This document shows positions 1 through 11,511 of a stretch of DNA of 11,511 bases, piece after piece. The stretch lies in the IMG/VR virus record IMGVR_UViG_2579778919_000009, positions 1 through 11,511 of that record; one strand, written 5' to 3'. The notes under the pieces are model-generated. The model was given only the letters and a program-made list of their open reading frames with translations, was not told where the DNA came from and made no database searches. The stretch comes from a virus. Its lineage: Duplodnaviria; Heunggongvirae; Uroviricota; Caudoviricetes. A program made the translations under genes and the position numbers. The stretch's first letter is position 1; each line of letters opens with the position of its first letter.

Positions 1-495
1 GTGTCTGATTCTATGAGTTACGCTGTGCTAGTTGCCGCAACTCTATTTATGGGGATAGGGTTGCAGATTGCGTGGTTCTTTTTTTCTAGTTTTATTAAAC
101 GCAAAAGAATTGAATCAAGGATATCTGAGATTTCTATTGCTATAGGGAAAAATGCTGAAAATCCAGAGAATGAGGCCTGCGCACTGAATTACCTTAAAGA
201 AAAGTTTTCCCCTGAAAAATTTGAAAATAGAATTACTGATGCTCTTGGATTGGTAATATCAGTAATTCATATGCCACTAAGTTTGCTGATAACAGTGTGG
301 TACTTCGCCATGATCGCCGGAAGAATATTTGGTTTCATGAATATAGAGCCTGTAGTTCTTTGGGTTCCAATGATACTGCAACTGTTGTTAAGCGTTGCTA
401 TCTTTATTTTTTCTGTTTTTATAAAAATTGTCTTTGGAAGATACCCCGGAGAAGCTAAGGGATTTAATAAAGAATTCATAAAAACTATAAAATAA
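1..495 (+). CDS. Small AT-rich integral membrane protein (about 3 predicted TM helices); 5' end at or beyond window edge; possible moron / superinfection-exclusion-type gene
   Basis: ORF open from base 1 (GTG; first ATG at 13) to TAA at 493-495. Hydrophobic stretches [76 protein letters not shown]. Visibly AT-rich compared with the rest of the window. Convergent with the 613-aa virion protein gene. No family recognised by eye. Confidence 0.5.
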
Positions 496-517
496 ATGCC
501 GTCCTTGGCTTACAGTG

Positions 518-2359
518 CTACTGCCGGGTCGCTTCGTTAGCTAAGAGCGGGCGCACGGCAGTAGCAGCCTGATTTAGCGCTCTTTCATAAGCTGGCGTTC
601 CAGCTTTAGTGTTTGCCAGACGTAAGAGCGCATTCCTTGCTGCTTTGGACTCATACAAACGCATCATTGCACCAAAACCAGCCTCAAGCCCCATTGATAC
701 TCCAAGAGTCGCAGTTGCGCCAATCGTCCTTATCCTGTTGGCTTGTGATTGCCCCGTCTGAGTTACTACATTTGCGGTGTCTGACCTTGCTGTTTGCTGT
801 AGAACTTCATGAAGAGCATCGAGCTCTTTCATGTGCTTTCCAGAAAAAATAGTGTTGTAAATTTCACCGCCTGACTGAGATTTAAGCTTATTAACTTCAG
901 TGATGAACTTGGCTGGAGAGTCACCGGCCTTTTCCGCTATTTTGCTGACGTAAGCTGCACGCATAGCATCTTTCCCTTTATCATCCAATGCGCTCCAGAT
1001 TCGTTTCACGTCAGATGGTTTTCTGCTTAATACAACGGTATTTATAAGTTCAGGACTGGCTTCACTGCTTGCCTTGTTGAGCTTGTTAGCAATGTTTTTA
1101 TTAAGCACCTTATTATAAACGTTTGCATAATCTGAATTTGCTTTAAGGTATTTTGCTGCGTCTGATGCACCGAGGTTTTTAGCAACTGCGTTACGAAGGT
1201 CTTTTGACATTGCATTCTCTACCATATTGGTAGCTGCTTTTGCCTGGTTGGGGAAGACCATAGCATCTCCCTGAACATTAGATCTAAATGCTGTTCTGTG
1301 CTGACGCAAGAGATCAAACGTAACATCCAAATCAGTTGCAGGGTTTGCTAATTCTTCGCGTAGGTTACGCAAGGATGTAAGCAGGCTTTGATTGGCAGAC
1401 GTCCCAAGCCGTTCCTGTCTTGCGATCGCTGTATTCAGAGCATTCATAGTGTTTGTGGTATCAACTGCGGCATTCCCCATTTTATTGGTGACGTCATTGA
1501 TAACAGCGCCAGCGGCATCCTTCCGTCCCCTTAACGTGGTGGTCAGAGATTTCACCACATCATCCGGGTTGTACTCACCAAAACGGTCAAAATAATTACT
1601 TACCAACTTACTACGCGTTGCATATTGCTCCGCTCGCTTTGAGCCTGTCCCGAGCAAAGCCCCCTCGGCATCCTGAGTAAGGCCGCGAGTGAAAGCATTT
1701 TTCGGCGGGATAACATCAGATGTCATTGGTGTCACGCCCATCGATTCTGATGTGGCAATTTTCTTCGCCACTTCTGGCGCAATATCACCTTTTATAGCCG
1801 TTATTCCACGCCCTATTCCCTTTGCTGCTGCGGAAAGAACCCCCTGAGCGGCAAGGTTAACTCCGGCATTTTTAGCTGCATTTTGTGCGAAATCGCCTTT
1901 CTGATTTGCGGCCTCTGCCAGTGATCCAATAGCCATGCTTCCTGCCGTTCCAACTCCTGGAACTAAATACCCACCAATTGTTTCACCGGCTTGTGCGTAT
2001 GGGTCTGTCGGTCTGTCTACTGGACGATAAACATCATCCAAAACCTTGGGTCCACCAAGCCCCTGACTGATTGCATTAATCAGACTTGCGCCGCCCTGCA
2101 ATACGTCAAATGGTATGTTTACCAGACCACGACCAGCCTGCTCTGCAATTTGCCCTGCACTTTGACCACCTGTGAGCCAATCGCCAGCTTGTTGCATCAA
2201 TGATGGTTCTTCACGTGCTGGTTCATTATTGGCCTGATTAACTGTTTGTTGCTGAACAGCCTGACCAGCAAAATACTCATCAATGGCGGTGCCAATATCT
2301 TCCGTGCTCGTACCATCAGGGAAGGTAAATGTCTTACCGTTTGCAGTTACTTTCATCAT
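518..2359 (-). CDS. Phage internal virion / DNA-ejection (DNA transfer) protein, P22 gp16-like, 613 aa
   Basis: Long ORF rich in Ala/Gly/Gln/Asn with a Gly/Ala-rich segment ([23 protein letters not shown]...). Size and position (after a gp20-like segment, before a small membrane protein gene) match the P22 gene 20 - gene 16 arrangement. Start ATG overlaps the upstream stop (ATGA), suggesting translational coupling. Family assignment is from memory, not a search. Confidence 0.6.
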
Positions 2360-3933
2360 TCCACCGTAAATTGAATGCCTGATTTTGAGGTATATGATCC
2401 GGATTGACTCTGCTGCTGTTGGGTATTTGTCGGTTGTTGGCTATTGCTCTGTTGTTGACTATTTGCAACACTTGAAACCACCAAAGCATCATAAACGCGA
2501 CCAGACTGACCACGTAATGAGTTATATTGGCCCTGCATTTTTCGCATTTTTGTTTCAGTAGCAGCCTTGGAATCACCAGGCTGAGGCAGGTACATTTTGG
2601 AATACTCCTGCATCTCTGGCAGAGTAATTGCTGCACCTGTTTCTGGGCGCAAAATTGCATACAAGGCGTCTCTCGCATTTACCATATATTGCTGCTCCGC
2701 TGGTGATAGGCTTAAATTTGCAATAGTCCCATCACCAAGAGAGCGATTTATTAATGCAACTCGCTTAGGGTCAATGCTTTTACTAAGCTGATTCATTGAG
2801 TCCATTGAATCTTTTAATCGCAAAGCAAATCCTGCCGCCTTCTTGGAACCCTCATTAGCCTTATCTATGATGCTTTGCGCTTGTGGCAAACTAATTGGTT
2901 TAATGCCATCACCAGATATAGGTTGGTTTAGTTTTCCGGCTTCCTCGCTGCCATCGGTGTAATACTTAGTTACCGAGCCATCAGGATTGGTTTCAACCTT
3001 AAGTAATTTCTTAGCATTGGGATTAATTCCCGCCGCTGCCGCAAATGCCGCTGCACCATCTGGATCCGCCTTTAACATTTGCGCGTACTGATTGTAATTC
3101 TGCATTGCGGCTGTTGGTGCATATGCTGACGTTAACGCATTTGCTCGGCTAATATCCTGCCCTCTCGCCTGAAGTGCTTCGCTGGCCTGATTGCTGCGGA
3201 TTGTCTCTGCCAGTCTGCCTCGGTCAATCTCACGACCAGCTATCTTGTCCTGAACAGCAAACGCCTTTTCTGGCCCAAGTGCACCGAGAGACATAGTAGT
3301 CAGCATGTGTGATAGCTGCTCTGGATTCTGGATACCTGTCTGAATCATCCAGTCAGCATTAGCCCCCACACGATTTAACCTGTCCTTGTTGTCAGTAATG
3401 AATTTACTGTAGGCTTCCGGTCCCTGAGAAAGAGCGACGTTAGCCCTCATGGCTAAATCGCCCATATCGTTGCGTTGCTGCTCATTAAGACCGGAAAACG
3501 CCTGTTGTGCCTGTGCAACAAACGCTGGATTTCCAGATCTGATACTGAGAACGTTTCGTCCAGCAACTGGAGAGAGTTCGACGGTGGCATCATTGCCCAT
3601 GCCGGAGGCGCTGGAGGTTTCGGCTGAGGATGGCACAGGGCATTTTCCTTTGACGAGCACCCTGCCACCATTATCAAGCTTGCGCCGAAGAGCATCATTT
3701 TCAGCTTTCGCATCAGCTAACTCCTTCGTGTATTTAGCATCGAGTGCATCAGCATCACGCTGGCGCTGCTGCATGTCAGTAATGGTGGCAGTCGCCTGCT
3801 TCAGCTCACTGACTTTTTTATCACGCTGCTCTTTGTAGGCGATGGCATTATCACGGTAATGATTGACCGCCCATGACAGGCAGACGATGATGCAGATAAC
3901 CAGAGCGGAGATAATCGCGGTGACTTTGCTCAT
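2356..3933 (-). CDS. Chimeric ORF: Rz-type i-spanin N-terminus (about 120 aa) fused in frame to about 400 aa of ejection-protein-like sequence (P22 gp20-like)
   Basis: N-terminus [30 protein letters not shown]...[19 protein letters not shown] closely matches lambda Rz as I recall it (TM anchor plus coiled coil). Rz is about 150 aa, but this ORF runs on for 525 aa with Ala/Gln/Asn/Ser-rich sequence and no Rz-like C-terminus. Rz start overlaps the R stop (ATGA). Confidence 0.6.
3453..3713 (-). CDS. Rz1-type o-spanin lipoprotein embedded in the +1 frame of Rz; C-terminus extended/altered by the same junction
   Basis: [22 protein letters not shown]... has a lipobox-like signal (VAGC) followed by a proline-rich [16 protein letters not shown] segment, as in lambda Rz1. 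It is 86 aa against about 60 for lambda Rz1; the tail after about residue 55 is unrelated. Confidence 0.55.
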
Positions 3934-4268
3934 ACCTCAACCTCTCTGACCGTTCCGCCTGCTTCTTTGAATTTTGCAATCAGGCTGTCAGCCTTATGCT
4001 CGAACTGACCATAACCAGCGCCCGGCAGTGAAGCCCAGATATTACTGCAACGGTCGATAGCCTGACGGATATCACCGCGATCAATCATCGGTAAAGCGCC
4101 ACGCTCTTTAATCTGCTGCAGTGCCACAGCGTCCTGGCTTTTCGGAGAGAAGTCTTTCAGTCCAAGCTGCTTACGGTAGGCATCCCACCAACGGGAAAGA
4201 AGCTGGTAACGTCCGGCGGCTGTTGATTTGAGTTTACAGGCATAACCCTGTACAACATCAGGAGGCAT
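3930..4268 (-). pseudogene. R: Endolysin R (lambda-type lytic transglycosylase) C-terminal fragment; N-terminal about 55 residues including the catalytic region missing
   Basis: KLKSTAAGRYQLLSRWWDAYRKQLGLKDFSPKSQDAVALQQIKERGALPMIDRGDIRQAIDRCSNIWASLPGAGYGQFEHKADSLIAKFKEAGGTVRE is near-identical to the C-terminal about 100 aa of lambda R from memory. The first 11 codons (MPPDVVQGYAC) are unrelated and are encoded by the sequence that forms the upstream/RBS region of the opposite-strand replication gene. Confidence 0.85.
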
Positions 4269-4273
4269 CCAGT

Positions 4274-5101
4274 ATGGGGTATGTCTCTATACACCGCCAG
4301 TTTATGGACAGCAGGCTCTATAAGGACTCTCAGGCAGTACATCTTTGGCTTCACTTAATCCTCAAGGCTAATCACGAATCTACTGTCGTCAATACGGATA
4401 TCGGTCCGATAACTGTTGATCGCGGTCAGATGATAACTGGACGCCCGTCGCTGGTCAGAGAAACATTCATCCCCGACAACAAAGTTCGGAGCTTATTACG
4501 GACTTTTGAGTCGAAAGGTATGCTTAATATTTGCTCGATGGGGAAGAAATTTAGCCTGTTTACAATCGTTAAATATGACGATTTTCAGGCAAAAAATTGT
4601 CCAACGGTTGTCCAACAGTTGTCCAACGCAAACACCAGTAATGGTGCGGCTCTCAGCGGAGATTGTCCAACGGTTGTCCAACGGTTGTCCATAAACAATA
4701 ATATAAATAATATCTCTAATACTGACGTATTAGAGAGTGCTACAGCAGACAAAAAGTCTGACAAGAAAAAACCTTCCGTCAGCTGTCAGGATGTTGTCGA
4801 TGCTTACCACGAAATCCTTCCTGAAGCGCCAAGAATCCGCGCACTGAATGACAAGCGTAAAAACCAGATCCGAACGTTCTGGCGCAAAGCCGGAGTGATA
4901 ACCCGCCAGCTTGACGGGCATGGGTTCACGATGCAGGACTGGAGAAATTATTTGAGCTACGTAGGCGAAAATTGCCGATGGATGTTCGAAGAGCGTCCAA
5001 ACCATCAACGCGGAACTGTCTGGCACAAAAAGGGATTTGATTTCCTGCTTAACGATAATACCTACCTGAAAGTTCGTGAGGGTGAACACGATGACCGATA
5101 A
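4274..5101 (+). CDS. Replication initiator protein (lambda O / P22 gp18 functional class) with origin iterons inside its coding sequence
   Basis: Good RBS (GGAGG about 8 nt upstream of ATG 4274). Origin-type iterons and an AT-rich region sit mid-gene, as in lambda O. The stop overlaps the start of the downstream helicase gene. Confidence 0.7.
   Translation: MGYVSIHRQFMDSRLYKDSQAVHLWLHLILKANHESTVVNTDIGPITVDRGQMITGRPSLVRETFIPDNKVRSLLRTFESKGMLNICSMGKKFSLFTIVKYDDFQAKNCPTVVQQLSNANTSNGAALSGDCPTVVQRLSINNNINNISNTDVLESATADKKSDKKKPSVSCQDVVDAYHEILPEAPRIRALNDKRKNQIRTFWRKAGVITRQLDGHGFTMQDWRNYLSYVGENCRWMFEERPNHQRGTVWHKKGFDFLLNDNTYLKVREGEHDDR
4597..4695. repeat. Origin iterons: two clusters of three tandem 11-bp repeats (TTGTCCAACGG / TTGTCCAACAG / TTGTCCAACGC, then TTGTCCAACGG x2 and a degenerate TTGTCCATAAA)
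   Basis: Direct tandem repeats read at about 4597-4629 and 4663-4695, separated by about 33 bp. They encode the repetitive linker CPTVVQQLSN...CPTVVQRLS of the initiator. Confidence 0.75.
4696..4740. other. AT-rich putative DNA-unwinding region with short palindrome CTCTAATA-N6-TATTAGAG next to the iterons
   Basis: Sequence ATAAACAATAATATAAATAATATCTCTAATACTGACGTATTAGAGAG lies immediately downstream of the iterons, the typical lambdoid ori layout. Confidence 0.5.
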
Positions 5102-6146
5102 TTTTTATGCGCCGCCCCATAGCATCGAGGCAGAGCAGGCGGTGATTGGTGGATTGCTTCTGGATGATGACAGCAGTGAGCGCGTCCAGAAGGTTCTGGC
5201 GATGCTGAAGCCTGATTCATTTTACAGCCGGCCACACAAAATCCTTTTCGAAGAAATAACCAGAATGCACCGGGAGCAAAAGCCAGTAGATGGCCTGACG
5301 CTTTTCGATGAACTGGAGCGTAAATCGTTAACTGTGTCTGTTGGCGGTTTTGCTTATATCGCTGAGATCGCAAAGAACACGCCAAGCGCAGCAAACATCG
5401 TTGCCTATGCAATGCAGGTTCGTGAAACCGCAATGGAACGCTACGCCATCAACCGTATGACTGAAGCGACGGAATTGCTCTATTCCCGCAACGGAATGAC
5501 TGCAACGCAGAAGTACGAAGCTATTCAGTCGATTTTCACGCAACTGACAGACCATGCAAAAACCGGATCGCGTCGCGGCCTTCGTTCATTTGGTGAGGTC
5601 ATGGAAGACTGGGTTAGCGACCTTGAGAAGCGATTTGACCCGTCAGGCGAACAACGAGGAATGAGCACAGGGATCCCATCGCTGGACAGGATGCTGTCAC
5701 CGAAAGGTCTGGTGAAAGGCTCTCTGTTTGTCATTGGCGCTCGCCCTAAGATGGGGAAAACGACGCTATACAGCCAGATGGCAATCAACTGCGCAGTGCA
5801 TGAGAAAAAGCCCGCTCTGATGTTCAGCCTTGAAATGCCAGGTGACCAGATACTGGAAAAACTGGTAGGGCAGAAGTCTGGTGTTAACCCGAATATTTTT
5901 TACCTTCCGGCGACAAATGACGCTGATGACGGCTATCAGGGTGATTACGATGGTGACTTCAACAGGGCGATCGAAACAGCCAATCGCTTGAGTGAAATCG
6001 ACCTGCTTTACATCGACGACACGCCGGGATTATCTCTGGCTCAAATCGTCAGCGAAAGTCGTCGAATCAAGCGAGAAAAAGGATGTGTTGGCATGATTCT
6101 GGTCGATTACAGGGAGAAGGCGCATGAGACTCGAAAGCGTAGCTAA
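5091..6146 (+). pseudogene. DnaB-family replicative helicase (P22 gp12 class), C-terminal about 110-120 aa missing
   Basis: N-terminal DnaB signature NFYAPPHSIEAEQAVIGGLLLD, Walker A GARPKMGKTT, Walker B-like MILVDY. The ORF stops about 10 codons after Walker B, with an unrelated tail (REKAHETRKRS) that overlaps the Q start region. Likely true start is ATG 5091 (the ORF track starts at 5076). Confidence 0.7.
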
Positions 6147-6603
6147 ATTTCATTCGCCAAAAAGCCCGATGATTAGCGACTCACCACGGGCTACAGCTTC
6201 TGACTCTCTTTCCGGTACTGATGTGATGGCTGCTATGGGGATGGCACAATCACAGGCCGGATTCGGGATGGCTGCATTTTGCGGTAAGCACGAACTCAGC
6301 CAGAACGACAAACAAAAGGCTATCAACTATCTGATGCAATTTGCACACAAGGTATCGGGGAAATACCGTGGTGTGGCAAAGCTCGAAGGAAATACTAAGG
6401 CAAAGGTACTGCAAGTGCTCGCAATATTCGCTTATGAGGATTATTGCCGTAGTGCCGCGACGCCGGGTGCAAGATGCAGAGATTGCCACGGTACAGGCCG
6501 TGCGGTTGATATAGCCAAAACGGAGCAGTGGGGGAGAGTTGTTGAGAAAGAGTGCGGAAGATGCAAAGGTGTCGGCTATTCAAGAATGCCAGCAATCAGC
6601 TAA
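6124..6603 (+). pseudogene. Q: Late-gene antiterminator Q (lambda Q type), C-terminal about 50 aa missing/replaced
   Basis: MRLESVAKFHSPKSPM...CRDCHGTGRAVDIAKTEQWGRVVEKECGRCKGVGYSRMP matches lambda Q from memory, including the CxxC...CxxC zinc motif. It ends after about 159 aa (lambda Q is about 207). No PR'/qut or holin follows. Confidence 0.75.
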
Positions 6604-6605
6604 CT

Positions 6606-6766
6606 TAACGACGCCCATGTTTCACTCCTACTTTGGCTAGTCTGTAAACACCAACAAGGCGCTCTGCGAACGCCCTGTTATTTGCTGCGGCTACCACTAA
6701 TCCCTCAGGTGAATCAGGGTGTCGAATCTCTTCTTTTTCCTGGTATTTCTTACGACGTTTTGTCAT
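6606..6766 (-). CDS. Small basic ORF (53 aa, MTKRRKKYQEKEE...) occupying the position of the 5' end of the replication gene downstream of cII/oop
   Basis: SD-like GGAGT about 4 nt upstream of the ATG. The start codon overlaps the -10 of the oop-type promoter on the other strand, which is where the O start sits in lambda. It ends at the junction with the inverted Q fragment. No recognisable family. Confidence 0.3.
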
Positions 6767-6769
6767 AAT
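6741..6769 (+). promoter_or_regulatory. Po-like promoter for oop RNA (TTACGA - 17 nt - CATAAT)
   Basis: Sigma70-like hexamers with 17-nt spacing, placed just upstream of the oop-homologous sequence. Confidence 0.5.
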
Positions 6770-6776
6770 TACTCCT

Positions 6777-6853
6777 GTAGATTGATCCAGTAATGACCTC
6801 AGAATTGCATATCAATTTGCTTAAAATCCTCGGTGGCGGCCGGGGATTTTTTC
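6777..6853 (+). ncRNA. oop: oop-like antisense RNA overlapping the 3' end of cII, ending in an intrinsic terminator
   Basis: GTAGATTGATCCAGTAATGACCTCAGAATTGCAT...CCTCGGTGGCGGCCGGGGATTTTTTC closely resembles lambda oop RNA as I recall it (the block GATCCAGTAATGACCTCAGAA appears identical). Terminal hairpin CCUCGG/CCGGGG plus U-tract. Antisense to the last about 18 codons of cII. Confidence 0.7.
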
Positions 6854-7095
6854 TTTGTGATTCCATCCAATGCATACTTAAAAGCCCTGCTAATCGGACT
6901 GATGTCTGATGCCATTCCGAAAGCACACAAGACCGAAGCAATAAACCTCCAGTCCGTTCTGCTTATCTTCGATTCATGACAGCCAATCATCTTTGCCAGA
7001 CCGCGCTGGGTAAGCGTTGACAGGTTGATGAGTAAATCAGTTTCAGCGCGATCAATTTCTCGCTGTGTTGGCTTGCTATAACTTGCTTGTGTCAT
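6799..7095 (-). CDS. cII: CII-family transcriptional activator
   Basis: HTH region (LAKMIGCHESKISRTDWRFI) and C-terminus (KKKSPAATEDFKQIDMQF) resemble lambda CII (KSQISRWKRDWI, NKKRPAATERSEQIQMEF). Sits downstream of cro and nutR, as in lambdoid phages. Confidence 0.8.
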   Translation of the reverse strand: MTQASYSKPTQREIDRAETDLLINLSTLTQRGLAKMIGCHESKISRTDWRFIASVLCAFGMASDISPISRAFKYALDGITKKKSPAATEDFKQIDMQF

Positions 7096-7106
7096 TTGTT
7101 AATTTT
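7073..7106 (+). promoter_or_regulatory. PRE-like CII-dependent promoter (TTGC-N6-TTGC around the -35 region, -10-like TAATTT), reading antisense through cro toward cI
   Basis: TTGCTATAACTTGC direct-repeat tetramers with 6-nt spacing lie inside the 5' end of cII on the opposite strand, the same layout as lambda PRE. Confidence 0.45.
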
Positions 7107-7179
7107 CCAATAGTGAATAGTTAGTTGAAAGGTATGCGTGGAAACGCATATGGCCTTAGTTGGTCAGATATCTTGGGGC

Positions 7180-7225
7180 TCGCTTTGTCAGCGACGTAGG
7201 ACGAATGTCCATTGTGAAAAGAGCG
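7180..7225 (-). promoter_or_regulatory. nutR: boxA (CGCTCTTTT) followed by a boxB hairpin of the P22 type (loop GACAAA)
   Basis: On the - strand, just downstream of the cro stop: CGCTCTTTTCACAATGGACATTCGTCCTACGTCGCTGACAAAGCGAGC. The boxB stem-loop matches the P22-type GCGCUGACAAAGCGC rather than lambda GCCCUGAAAAAGGGC. A 7-bp stem hairpin at about 7133-7150 may be part of tR1. Confidence 0.55.
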
Positions 7226-7232
7226 GTGTTAC

Positions 7233-7433
7233 TTATGCAGTTGTTTTTTTGTTACTTGGGAAGGGCTTTATTTCTTCCGCATAAACGCTTCCATCAGCGT
7301 TTATAGTTAAAAAAATCTTTCGGCCTGCATGAATGGCCTTGTTAATCGCGCTTTGATATACGCCGAGATCTTTAGCCGTCTTGGTTTGCCCAAAGCGTAT
7401 TGCATAATCTTTCAGGGTTATGCGTTGTTCCAT
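7233..7433 (-). CDS. cro: Cro repressor
   Basis: 66-aa product [66 protein letters not shown] is essentially lambda Cro (one or two substitutions, from memory). Confidence 0.95.
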
Positions 7434-8247
<814 letters not shown>

Positions 8248-8278
8248 TTGTTTTATTTTTCACGTAATAGGATGATTT

Positions 8279-8620
8279 ATGACACAATTTCAACTTGCAT
8301 TAATCGCTAGAGAAGTTGATGGAGAAGTCATCCATCTTCGCACCAAAGACGGATACATCAATGCCACCGCGATGTGCAAGTCTGCGGGGAAGCTACTTGC
8401 TGACTATACACGACTAAAAACAACACAAGATTTTTTTGATGAATTATCACGCGATATGGGGATTCCCATATCGGAGTTAATTCAATCATTTAAAGGCGGA
8501 AGAGCAGAGAATCAAGGGACTTGGGTTCATCCAGACATCGCAATTAATTTAGCTCAGTGGCTATCTCCAAAATTTGCAGTGCAAGTATCGAGATGGGTGC
8601 GTGAGTGGATGTCAGGTTAA
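8279..8620 (+). CDS. KilA-N domain protein (113 aa) in the rexA/rexB position, co-transcribed with cI
   Basis: YINATAMCKSAGK...ENQGTWVHPDIAINLAQWLSPKFAVQVSRWV fits the KilA-N domain pattern as I recall it. SD AGGATGA upstream of the ATG; only about 31 nt separate it from the cI stop, with no terminator between. Confidence 0.65.
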   Translation: MTQFQLALIAREVDGEVIHLRTKDGYINATAMCKSAGKLLADYTRLKTTQDFFDELSRDMGIPISELIQSFKGGRAENQGTWVHPDIAINLAQWLSPKFAVQVSRWVREWMSG

Positions 8621-8659
8621 AGAGCGCCTGCCGAACTCCCTATCCACCTTAAGCGGTAT

Positions 8660-8965
8660 ATGACAAACCGAGGCAGAGTTCCTCATACGCACTTTTCTAT
8701 GCTTAATGAACTGACGTTTAACTTGGTTGCGCCACTTGAACAGGCCGGATATACGCTGCCAGAAAAAATGGTCCCTGATATTTCAGAGGGTAGGGTTTTC
8801 TCGCAATGGCTCCGTGACAACCGGGGGGTTGAGCCGAAGACATTCCCAACATATAACCATGAGTACCCAGATGGCCGGACATTCCCGGTACGTCTATACC
8901 CAAACGAATATTGCAGATTTCAAACAATACTTCAACGAAGTGTGGCTGCCTCAGTACGCTCCTAA
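8660..8965 (+). CDS. Hypothetical protein, in the same frame as the KilA-N ORF and separated from it by a single TAA; probable frameshift near 8890-8910, after which the alternative frame continues to 9038
   Basis: 8279 and 8660 are in the same frame, with 13 sense codons and one TAA (8618-8620) between them. Weak RBS before 8660. The overlapping ORF 8727..9038 has a protein-like C-terminus (NIADFKQYFNEVWLPQYAPKYFAERDQRALTLIEKIML). Confidence 0.45.
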   Translation: MTNRGRVPHTHFSMLNELTFNLVAPLEQAGYTLPEKMVPDISEGRVFSQWLRDNRGVEPKTFPTYNHEYPDGRTFPVRLYPNEYCRFQTILQRSVAASVRS

Positions 8966-9047
8966 ATATTTTGCTGAACGAGACCAAAGGGCATTGACGT
9001 TGATTGAGAAAATCATGCTACCTGACCTTGATTCCTAAATGTTATTC

Positions 9048-9073
9048 CCGGCCACAGAGCCGGGTTTTCTTTG
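9048..9073 (+). terminator. Intrinsic terminator closing the cI / KilA-N operon
   Basis: CCCGGC-CACAGA-GCCGGG hairpin (6-bp GC stem) followed by TTTTCTTT, about 10 nt after the 9038 stop. Confidence 0.7.
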
Positions 9074-9112
9074 CCTCACGATCCCCCTCACCCAAGAACA
9101 CATAACCAATTG

Positions 9113-9138
9113 TATCTATTTGAAAATAAATAGATACA
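9113..9138. repeat. Perfect 10-bp inverted repeat GTATCTATTT-N6-AAATAGATAC between the terminator and OL3
   Basis: Read directly; AT-rich, so more likely a protein-binding site than a terminator. Confidence 0.6.
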
Positions 9139-9225
9139 ACTCACTAAACATAGCAGTTCAGATCTCTCACCTACCAAACAATGCACCCCTGCAAAAAATA
9201 AATTCATATAAAAAACATACAGATA

Positions 9226-9295
9226 ACCATCTGCGGTGATGAATTATCTCTAGCGGTGTTGACATAAATACCACTGGCGGTGATACTAAACACAT
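9226..9295 (+). promoter_or_regulatory. Left operator OL3-OL2-OL1 with PL promoter (-35 TTGACA, -10 GATACT), transcribing rightward in this window
   Basis: TATCTCTAGCGGTGTTGACATAAATACCACTGGCGGTGATACTAAACACATCAGCAGGACGCAC is near-identical to lambda PL/OL1/OL2 from memory. An OL3-like site AACCATCTGCGGTGA lies about 20 bp upstream. Confidence 0.9.
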
Positions 9296-9355
9296 CAGCA
9301 GGACGCACTACTCACCAGGGCGGTGAATATACAACGATTCAAATATGAATCTACG

Positions 9356-9370
9356 GCGCTGACAAAGCGC
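9356..9370 (+). promoter_or_regulatory. nutL boxB hairpin, P22 type (GCGCTGACAAAGCGC)
   Basis: 5-bp GC stem with GACAAA loop, about 65 nt downstream of the PL start and about 130 nt upstream of the N-like start codon. No convincing boxA identified. Confidence 0.55.
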
Positions 9371-9498
9371 AATAACCAAAGTGAACTTTGGGGTGAATGC
9401 AGAAGCTAACCTTCTCGGCGGAGGCGCTTTGCAATGATTACGCTACCGGAGTTAGTCGCCCGGCTGTATTCACCGCCAAAGTTCACCAGGAGGTCTAT

Positions 9499-9666
9499 AT
9501 GACACGCAGAACTCAGTTCAAAGGCAATTCACGTTCTCGTCGTCGTGAGCGTTTAAAGGCAAAGGCATTAGCTAACGGCGTACTGGCCCGCGAAGAAGCA
9601 ATAAGTTCAGAAGTATTACACCGCCCTACGCCATCATCAATGTTGCGGCGATCGGCATCACCTTAA
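9499..9666 (+). pseudogene. N-type antiterminator, N-terminal arginine-rich motif retained (about 35-40 codons), remainder lost at a deletion junction
   Basis: Strong SD (CAGGAGG) before ATG 9499. MTRRTQFKGNSRSRRRERLKAKA resembles the P22 gp24 arginine-rich motif (GNAKTRRHERRRKLAIER, from memory). Only 55 codons against about 100 for N proteins; the 3' part overlaps the RecT frame. Confidence 0.55.
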
Positions 9667-10364
9667 ACCCAGCCAGCAAACTTGCTTATCTAGTTCCGCG
9701 CGACGGCATGGTTTGCCTTGATATCAGTTATATGGGATTGCTCCATATTGCAATGGAGTCTGGTGTTATCTCATGGGGTCAGGCAAAACTTGTTCATGCT
9801 AACGATACCTATGAGTCAAACGGGCTTGATAAAGCACCAACCCATAAATACAACGCCTTCGGTGATCGTGGTGATATCGTTGGCGTTTACTGCACAGTTA
9901 AGACGCCAGCAGGTGATTATCTAACGGAAGAGATGAGTCTGGCTGAAATTGAGGCTGTAAGGAAAACAAGCAAGGCGGCATTCAGCGATAAAGGACCATG
10001 GGTAAATCACTGGAATGAGATGGCGCGAAAGACGGTCGTAAAGCGTGCAAGCAAGTATTGGCCTAAGGCATCACGTCTTGATAGTGCTATTCACGTACTA
10101 AACGAAGAAGAAGGTGTATGGACTGAACCAGTTATGCCGTACAAATCAGAGGAAGATATCCGCGAAGATGAACGGAAACGCCAGCAGGAAATAACGGATA
10201 AAGCACAACTTCTTTGTGATGAAATGGCTCAGGCAGAAAACATGGATGATTTGAAGCGATATTTTGCAGAAGCATATCGCCTGACATCTGGAATGAAATT
10301 GCAGCATAACGTACAAGCCATTTACATAGAATGCAAAGCGAAACTGGAGGTTGCCAGTGAGTAA
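9576..10364 (+). pseudogene. recT: RecT-family single-strand annealing protein lacking about 50-60 N-terminal residues and any start/RBS of its own
   Basis: Frame open from 9576. ...YAIINVAAIGITLNPASKLAYLVPRDG... and KGPWVNHWNEMARKTVVKRASKYWPKA align to E. coli RecT (FVSAIVQCSQLGLEPGSALGHAYLLPFGN; GPWVTHWEEMAKKTAIRRLFKYLP). First in-frame Met is at 9708. Confidence 0.75.
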
Positions 10365-10839
10365 ACTATATGAAATAGCCAATGAATACGCAAAATTGAT
10401 GGATTCAGATTTAGAGCCAGAGATGATTGCTGACACAATAGAAGGCATGGAAGGAGAATTTACCGATAAAATAGAGCAACTTCTTTCCGTCATTAAAAAT
10501 GAATCTGGTTATGCTGAACGCCTCAAGGAAGAGGCAAAGTCACTGAATGAGCGAGCCGCAGTAATTCAAAATAAGATTGACAGCATCATATCATATATAG
10601 CGTCATCGCTTGAAATGGTAGGCAAGAAAAAGATTAGAGCAGGTATTCACCAGGTAACAATCCGCAAACCGTCAGAAATTGTAGAAATAATCGACTCAAG
10701 CGCCCTTCCTCCTGAATACGTTGAGTTTGAAACAACAATTAAAGCCGACAAACTGGCAATCAAACACCAACTAAAAGCAGGAATAAATATCCCCGGCGCT
10801 CAACTCAAAGTTGGGAAACCTTCACTTCTTATCAAATAA
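10351..10839 (+). CDS. Siphovirus Gp157-family protein (recombination-module accessory protein)
   Basis: LYEIANEYAKLMDS...DTIEGMEGEFTDKIEQL...GKKKIRAGIHQVTIRKPSEIVEIIDSSALPPEYVEF...LKAGINIPGAQLKVGKPSLLIK fits the Gp157 family pattern as I recall it. Probable start is GTG 10357 (GGAGG 6 nt upstream); it overlaps the RecT stop. Confidence 0.7.
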   Translation: MPVSKLYEIANEYAKLMDSDLEPEMIADTIEGMEGEFTDKIEQLLSVIKNESGYAERLKEEAKSLNERAAVIQNKIDSIISYIASSLEMVGKKKIRAGIHQVTIRKPSEIVEIIDSSALPPEYVEFETTIKADKLAIKHQLKAGINIPGAQLKVGKPSLLIK

Positions 10840-10850
10840 CGGTATCGCCT

Positions 10851-10985
10851 ATGAAAAAGACTCCATGGGAGAAATGGGAAGTCGATTTCTTGCGCGAAGT
10901 AGCGGCGACAAGGCCATATAACAACAAACCCTGTCGCTGCCACTCGCGCAGCAAAATCAGAGGTAAGGAGATCAAGACTTACGGC
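10851..10985 (+). other. Short remnant ORF (MKKTPWEKWEVDFLREVAATR...), 5' end of an unidentified gene running out of frame into int-derived sequence
   Basis: ATG 10851 opens a 44-codon frame. From about 10905 onward the DNA is int sequence read in a different frame. Confidence 0.25.
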
Positions 10986-11511
10986 TGACGAATACCTGAA
11001 AATTTATCAAGCAGCAGAATCATCACCATGTTGGCTCAGACTTGCAATGGAACTGGCTGTTGTTACCGGGCAGCGAGTTGGTGATTTATGCGAAATGAAG
11101 TGGTCTGATATCGTAGATGGATATCTTTATGTCGAGCAAAGCAAAACAGGCGTAAAAATTGCCATCCCAACAACATTGCATGTTGATGCTCTCGGGATAT
11201 CAATGAAGGAAACACTTGATAAATGCAAAGAGATTCTTGGCGGAGAAACCATAATTGCATCTACTCGTCGTGAACCGCTTTCATCCGGCACAGTATCAAG
11301 GTATTTTATGCGCGCACGAAAAGCATCAGGTCTTTCCTTCGAAGGGGATCCGCCTACCTTTCACGAGTTGCGCAGTTTGTCTGCAAGACTCTATGAGAAG
11401 CAGATAAGCGATAAGTTTGCTCAACATCTTCTCGGGCATAAGTCGGACACCATGGCATCACAGTATCGTGATGACAGAGGCAGGGAGTGGGACAAAATTG
11501 AAATCAAATAA
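10903..11511 (+). pseudogene. int: Integrase (lambda Int type), catalytic domain only; N-terminal arm-binding and core-binding domains deleted; no xis
   Basis: Int frame open from 10903: ...GHITTNPVAATRAAKSEVRRSRLTADEYLKIYQAAESSPCWLRLAMELAVVTGQRVGDL...HELRSLSARLYEKQ...HKSDTMASQYRDDRGREWDKIEIK. This is near-identical to lambda Int residues about 168-356 from memory and keeps the catalytic residues, but about 170 N-terminal residues are absent. Confidence 0.9.

Follow-up and report, generated by a model that had tools for sequence, protein, structure and literature searches.

The window analysed here is a stretch of 11,511 nucleotides (nt) of viral DNA (Caudoviricetes; IMG/VR record IMGVR_UViG_2579778919_000009, positions 1 to 11,511), in which three open reading frames (ORFs) follow the cI repressor gene. 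We conclude with high confidence that positions 8279-9038, which hold these ORFs, are a pseudogene, i.e. a dead copy, of a single BstA-family abortive-infection gene. The observed interruption is ordinary gene decay, though the dead copy occurs surprisingly widely. BstA proteins act in abortive infection and are encoded by prophages, typically by a gene immediately 3' of that for the repressor (Owen et al. 2021, PMC8585504). The pseudogene is unremarkable in this respect: its defence family is already described, and it lies where genes of that family are usually found. The ORFs, the remnants of the ancestral reading frame and the differences from the intact allele are as follows.

8279-8620, plus strand: N-terminal ORF of 113 amino acids (aa) with a complete KilA-N (APSES-like DNA-binding) domain, stopping at a premature TAA
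8287, plus strand: silent G>A in the Gln3 codon (CAG>CAA), seen only in the broken haplotype and within the region equivalent to the aba element
8618-8620, plus strand: first lesion, G>T, which turns the GAA codon of Glu114, the first residue of an unconserved linker, into TAA
8621-8910, plus strand: frame-0 remnant, residues 115-211, comprising the linker and the first two thirds of BstA_C
8660-8965, plus strand: second ORF, 101 aa, in the same frame as the first, the portion 3' of Met128
8727-9038, plus strand: third ORF, 103 aa, in the +1 frame, overlapping the end of the second
8910/8911, plus strand: second lesion, a deletion of 2 base pairs (bp) (-2, equal to +1), intact GAATATCTTGCAG, window GAATATTGCAG
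8913-9038, plus strand: +1-frame remnant, ancestral residues 213-253 and the original stop codon (9036-9038), forming the tail of the third ORF
8928, plus strand: C>T, His218Tyr in the ancestral frame, from the alignment with the D5 allele

A nonsense codon and a 2-bp deletion split one gene

A megablast search of 5,426 complete Escherichia coli genomes with positions 8240-9100 returned two genomes that are 100% identical to the window over this interval and a larger group that is 99.4% identical and two bases longer, in which the stretch is one 762-nt gene. The 253-aa product of the intact gene, encoded directly 3' of cI, is annotated as “KilA-N domain-containing protein” (WP_000191544.1), and a protein of phage PhiR5_2 encoded between cI and N is 100% identical to it. 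DNA alignment of the window with the intact 253-aa E. coli D5 allele revealed exactly four differences: the silent change at 8287, the GAA>TAA substitution at 8618, the deletion at 8910/8911 (in short context, TATCTTGCA in the intact allele and TATTGCA in the window) and the His218Tyr change. The alignment bears out a first-pass annotation of the window, which had proposed a single gene, interrupted by a nonsense codon and by a single-base indel near 8890-8910, for a KilA-N protein of about 250 aa with a C-terminal domain. The nonsense codon and a frameshift are both present; the frameshift, however, is caused by the loss of two bases instead of one, at a site one base beyond that interval. 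Inspection of both sites at orthologous loci, which the annotation had recommended, shows that the intact close alleles carry GAA at the first site and two further bases at the second.

The coordinates and frame relations previously given for the three ORFs are all correct. The first two share a frame (8660-8279 = 381 = 127 x 3), with TAA 8618-8620 and 13 sense codons (8621-8659) between them, while the third lies in the +1 frame (8727-8279 = 448). A weak ribosome-binding site had been ascribed to the second ORF, and its ATG at 8660 is indeed preceded by a weak Shine-Dalgarno (SD)-like AAGCGG (8651-8656) at the poor spacing of 3 nt. The three pieces align with successive portions of a single protein family and are therefore not chance ORFs.

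The Tyr211 codon (8909-8911) straddles the deletion site, past which frame 0 consists of 18 junk codons followed by a stop (8963-8965). A 55-aa gene call (8871-9038), annotated as PF26567 (BstA_C), spans the deletion together with the His>Tyr change. The 113-aa KilA-N domain is the sole complete product remaining. Re-initiation at Met128 would still swap two conserved helices, formed by the final 42 residues, for 18 junk residues, so that the C-terminal domain would have no intact form even by this route, and we infer that the cassette no longer gives BstA-type defence. Members of the BstA family are one uninterrupted two-domain protein; the intact relatives have this form and the window copy does not. 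Interrupted by the TAA in place of codon 114 and by the frameshift at 211/212, it therefore counts as a pseudogene of the family and not as a functional member. A single BstA pseudogene is accordingly the appropriate annotation for the stretch, in place of separate KilA-N and hypothetical genes, and defence-system finders should leave the window copy out of their counts of active systems.

Assignment to the BstA family

The N-terminal piece (8279-8617) matches Pfam KilA-N (PF04383) over profile positions 4-106 of 107 (E = 1.7e-27, 95.8 bits, cut-off 23.8). The second ORF (8660-8962) matches positions 160-226 of the PADLOC BstA profile (E = 4.3e-12) and the third (8727-9038) positions 236-272 of the same profile (E = 8e-4). 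The intact allele matches PADLOC BstA in its C-terminal half (E = 2.5e-20) and aligns end to end with PHROG 6287, “BstA abortive infection system, replication inhibitor” (E = 1.8e-82), while its residues 133-251 show 29% identity to residues 171-302 of the founding member of the family, the BstA of Salmonella prophage BTP1 (BLASTP, E = 5e-15). Among the best 120 of 2,748 database homologues, 119 carry both PF04383 and PF26567, one partial match carries PF26567 only, and the length is about 250 aa in all but two truncated proteins (153 and 172 aa). A scan of the local Pfam library did not report BstA_C, even for BTP1 BstA; PF26567 is known here from precomputed annotations, and the assignment rests on PADLOC, PHROGs and BLASTP. 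Profiles and similarity to a characterised BstA, including its C-terminal domain, thus place the intact protein in the BstA family.

BstA combines a KilA-N-like N-terminal domain with a separate C-terminal domain and inhibits the DNA replication of superinfecting phage; a cognate DNA element, aba, which overlaps the start of the gene, neutralises BstA for the benefit of the prophage that carries it (PMC8585504). The genes of BTP1 BstA, BstA-Ec and BstA-Kp occupy the same slot as the gene described here, 3' of cI, co-oriented with it, ahead of N and with a terminator of their own. The gene order is cI, bstA, terminator, N in BTP1, and cI, the intact 253-aa gene, N in PhiR5_2. BTP1 BstA and the intact allele share the plan of a KilA-N-type N-terminal domain joined to a homologous C-terminal domain; the intact allele is shorter (253 as against 307 aa) and its N-terminal domain is a canonical Pfam KilA-N, whereas that of BTP1 is described as “KilA-N-like”. 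Unlike the characterised BstA genes, the one in the window has become a pseudogene through a stop codon and a 2-bp deletion. Its KilA-N domain also differs from the KilA-N/APSES proteins (PF04383; Mbp1, Bqt4) in that it is left over from a defence protein with two domains and did not originate as a single-domain gene.

Intact relatives, selection and structure

Homologues that are natively two separate genes, or the lack of any homologue spanning the junctions, had been named in the first-pass annotation as findings that would contradict a split gene. Neither was encountered. Among the species-representative homologues, drawn from many phyla and 49-99% identical, 77 of 80 are a single ORF across both lesion sites, and the remaining three have unrelated internal stops. 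The 120 best database hits, too, all cross both junctions as one ORF. The 74 scorable IMG/VR loci comprise 63 intact genes on viral contigs, eight copies of the window haplotype, one gene with the Glu114 stop alone, one with W177* and one with a stop at 179. Ten intact close alleles segregate 50 synonymous and 8 conservative non-synonymous substitutions. The homologues, as single ORFs, are subject to purifying selection. A native two-gene architecture as the ancestral state was rejected, as homologues are single ORFs and split alleles are rare and derived.

AlphaFold2 was used to model the structure of a homologue of 86% identity, with a mean pLDDT (predicted local distance difference test) of 90.2. 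The model comprises an N-terminal domain (residues 8-111), an unstructured linker (112-121, pLDDT of about 71) and a C-terminal domain (122-247). Residues 114-119 are the least conserved stretch of the family. According to the model, the stop in the linker would cleanly amputate the KilA-N domain and leave that domain complete, while the frameshift at 211/212 would remove helices 209-235 and 237-247. The lost helices hold the invariant residues F215, F219, W223, Y231 and F232 and seven nearly invariant ones, including H218, whose conservation is at least 90%. Fold searches with the C-terminal domain gave no relatives of solved structure.

Spread of the broken haplotype

All four changes were found in complete linkage in 13 of the 13 isolate and metagenome loci retrieved through the exact 113-aa product. 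Every other metagenome or viral contig with the GGT-TAA form of the stop that reaches the deletion site carries the same haplotype. An NCBI assembly (L012) matches the window at 100% identity, the 113-aa product occurs on at least 1000 contigs, and the 55-aa ORF containing the junction on 423. Continuing decay on the broken haplotype is supported by its derived copies, in which V184G, 1-bp indels and terminator deletions have been added; such variants are few, with one change in the N-terminal part against about six downstream.

The module cII-cro-cI-bstA-PL (about 6586-9629) is 99.6-99.97% identical in four other lambdoid prophages (L008, L010, L013 and L014), which lie near dsdC/dsdX, are much better preserved and carry the dead bstA at 10001-10760 in each. 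All four have full-length N and replication genes, and three (L008, L010 and L014) also have Q and lysis genes. The presence of the same haplotype in these better-preserved prophages implies that the pseudogene travels with the lambda-immunity module instead of decaying in place.

Genes of this BstA subfamily are disrupted often and diversely, in about 15% of the close IMG/VR copies and in three of the 80 species representatives. Other disruptions include W177* (L121/L173), stops at 179 (L028/L197), 177 (L091) and 14 (L103), and those of the cluster proteins P0002-P0015. Frequent inactivation of BstA fits the view that abortive-infection genes are costly, or dispensable once the prophage is inactive.

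Alternative explanations

Decay was one of three options left by the first-pass annotation, the others being a sequencing error and regulated readthrough or frameshifting, and it is the one that the comparisons favour. That the real gene is intact and was miscalled by sequencing or assembly has hardly any probability. Nothing specific points that way, other than the noisy appearance of one carrier assembly (strain 81), which has extra indels in cI and the terminator, and a sequencing error is excluded because the identical four-change haplotype recurs across many independent assemblies, namely NCBI isolates, gut metagenomes of the ENA and IMG/VR. A substitution that creates a stop is, moreover, atypical of homopolymer error, and the deletion site lies outside any repeat. 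Programmed recoding, in which readthrough of the TAA and a frameshift near 8911 would yield the full-length protein at a regulated level, is equally far-fetched. Its appeal lies in the geometry, as the three pieces are still open and together reconstitute the full protein. Near-identical alleles, however, retain GAA and are two bases longer, which marks the arrangement as derived and not conserved, and two independent low-efficiency events would be required in one pass. The sequence AAC GAA TAT TGC AGA lacks a slippery motif, and 8905-8915 contains no slippery heptamer; the downstream RNA folds no better than shuffled sequences (z = +0.49), no Rfam recoding element was matched, and the haplotype goes on gaining frameshifts. 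In E. coli, TAA terminates translation efficiently. A programmed recoding site was thus rejected on account of the uninterrupted homologues and the lack of a slippery site, an RNA structure or an Rfam match.

A different challenge to decay comes from the Glu114 stop itself, since the identical stop also occurs on a second DNA background, as GGC-TAA, in E. coli (H5/H6), in IMG/VR (L106) and in a metagenome (L024). These alleles lack the 2-bp deletion, keep the C-terminal ORF intact and otherwise resemble the intact L124/L134 alleles. The two backgrounds, GGT-TAA (D5-like) and GGC-TAA (L124/L134-like), differ at the base adjacent to the stop and at many flanking sites. In Klebsiella, a third protein background shows the same split, with the 113-aa and C-terminal ORFs on 62 and 82 contigs; the independence of this allele is judged from protein differences only, and it was not found in IMG/VR. 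Because the adjacent base differs and a single substitution can create a nonsense codon in this gene in 109 ways, two separate G>T events at Glu114 would be the most parsimonious account of the sequences, but a single origin could have been spread by gene conversion combined with a change at the hypervariable third-position site 339. Records with the Glu114 stop are L017:3042-3803, L024 and L106/L172, with proteins P0004/P0037.

The stop at codon 114 might be a selected state, either a useful stand-alone KilA-N protein, which could for instance bind the cognate aba or other DNA or act as a dominant-negative or anti-BstA factor, or a functional split BstA, with KilA-N and BstA_C translated separately, of which the window copy would be a later, damaged derivative. 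The stop falls exactly in the unconserved, unstructured linker and leaves KilA-N complete, the same G>T is found on two DNA backgrounds and the same split on the third, Klebsiella, background, and repeated use of one among 109 nonsense paths is unexpected. The C-terminal ORF of H5/H6 is intact, the 113-aa product is the commonest disrupted form, whose carriers (at least 1000 contigs) include well-preserved prophages, and natural BstA homologues with the N-terminal or the C-terminal region alone have been described by Owen et al. (PMC8585504). On the other hand, many other disruptions exist (products of 69, 81, 93, 124, 144, 175, 176 and 239 aa; W177*; the stop at 179), which makes a coincidence of site plausible, and gene conversion with the change at site 339 could spread one origin. 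In addition, the ATG at 8660 has a poor ribosome-binding site, the C-terminal domain is destroyed anyway in the window haplotype, and the abundance may be due to hitch-hiking on an immunity module or host lineage that is itself successful. On balance we regard selection of the codon-114 stop as improbable, and likewise doubt that the Glu114 stop represents a recurrent selected conversion of BstA to a stand-alone KilA-N or a two-piece BstA, albeit less strongly than we doubt an artefact or recoding. If this did hold, the KilA-N fragment could modulate BstA defence or the recognition of aba, e.g. as a dominant-negative or anti-defence factor.

Four points weigh against reading the stretch as the decayed copy of a BstA defence gene. 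The 113-aa ORF is common; the identical Glu114 stop on a second background with an intact C-terminal ORF is not what neutral decay would lead one to expect; the N-terminal domains of the intact protein and of BTP1 BstA show no pairwise similarity by BLASTP; and defence activity of the intact 253-aa protein would follow from its family membership only. A literature search found no experimental paper on the 253-aa subfamily.

Proposed history of the gene

Decay of a BstA gene, the reading we prefer, suggests the following history. The ancestral gene would have encoded one protein of 253 aa made of a KilA-N/APSES domain, a 10-residue linker and a BstA_C domain, and would have formed a cargo cassette between cI and N, in the slot taken by rexAB in lambda. 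It would have been transcribed with cI in the lysogen, up to its own terminator, and its product, by analogy with BstA, would block DNA replication of superinfecting phages. A G>T change turned Glu114 into TAA, the 2-bp deletion at 8910/8911 shifted the frame and the nearly invariant His218 became Tyr. The dead allele is now passed on together with the lambda-immunity module as one haplotype, in this remnant and in far better preserved prophages.

Layout of the cassette

The neighbouring features are listed here.

7233-7433, minus strand: cro ORF
7486-7458, minus strand: PR-like promoter
7534-8247, plus strand: cI repressor ORF, 237 aa, intact, of lambda-immunity type (HTH_3 and Peptidase_S24 on the identical gene in L007)
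8221-8278, plus strand: 5' edge of the cassette, made up of the 3'-terminal 27 nt of cI (CAGTGGCCAGAAGAGACGTTTGGGTGA) and a 31-nt leader with the SD sequence AGGA at 8269-8272
9047-9072, plus strand: intrinsic terminator and 3' boundary of the cassette, CCCGGC-CACAGA-GCCGGG followed by TTTTCTTT
9259-9287, plus strand: PL-like promoter

The cI-cro region is 96.9% identical in nucleotides to that of HK97/mEp234. Transcription of cI (the PRM operon) reads into the cassette, and the layout known for the family, a gene 3' of the repressor, co-oriented with it and ending at a Rho-independent terminator, is seen in the window. The same slot between cI and OL/PL-N is occupied in lambda by RexA/RexB, which are likewise co-transcribed with cI in the lysogen and are cargo of the abortive-infection type (PMC8585504); they have no sequence relationship to bstA, are two genes instead of one, and PADLOC gave no Rex match.

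At loci whose repressors are unrelated, the gene is still preceded by this 27-mer and leader, the 27-mer sometimes being duplicated, and the terminator is kept with the gene ahead of differing downstream DNA. The cassette edges look like a recombination junction for the exchange of cargo in the cI-N slot. The boundaries of bstA-like cassettes are fixed whatever the repressor, with the 3' end of cI (QWPEETFG*) and the leader on the left and the stop codon and terminator (9036-9072) on the right, as seen in nine comparison loci (L017, L025, L115, L116, L118, L121, L123, L128 and L129), some of which carry the 27-mer twice.

The aba of BTP1 lies within the region equivalent to 8221-8278 plus the first 34 nt of the gene, and aba elements are allele-specific and functionally defined (PMC8585504). 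In the window, the aba-equivalent region 8250-8312 is kept with the cassette, with one private silent change at 8287. The aba sequence of BTP1, with its CCCGCC repeats, is absent from this allele, and an aba function here is only putative.

Prophage context of the window

The window shows the immunity region of a lambdoid prophage, read in the direction of cI. This prophage is cryptic and scrambled and occupies the lambda attachment site, flanked by ybhB/bioA and ybhC. Scrambled segments include 2356-3933 on the minus strand, 4234-6595, 9397-10364 and 11047-11511, and the O/DnaB and Q segments run in the opposite orientation to those of intact relatives. Only truncated forms of DnaB, N and RecT remain, and of Int a C-terminal fragment, while cI, cro, cII, PR and PL are intact. 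The remnant also holds an ORF in which Rz and P22 gp20 are fused in frame (Rz::P22-gp20), as well as a lysozyme fragment. Between the cassette terminator and the OL operators lies a perfect 10-bp inverted repeat, GTATCTATTT-(6 nt)-AAATAGATAC, at 9112-9137, which is partly conserved in other lambda-immunity loci.
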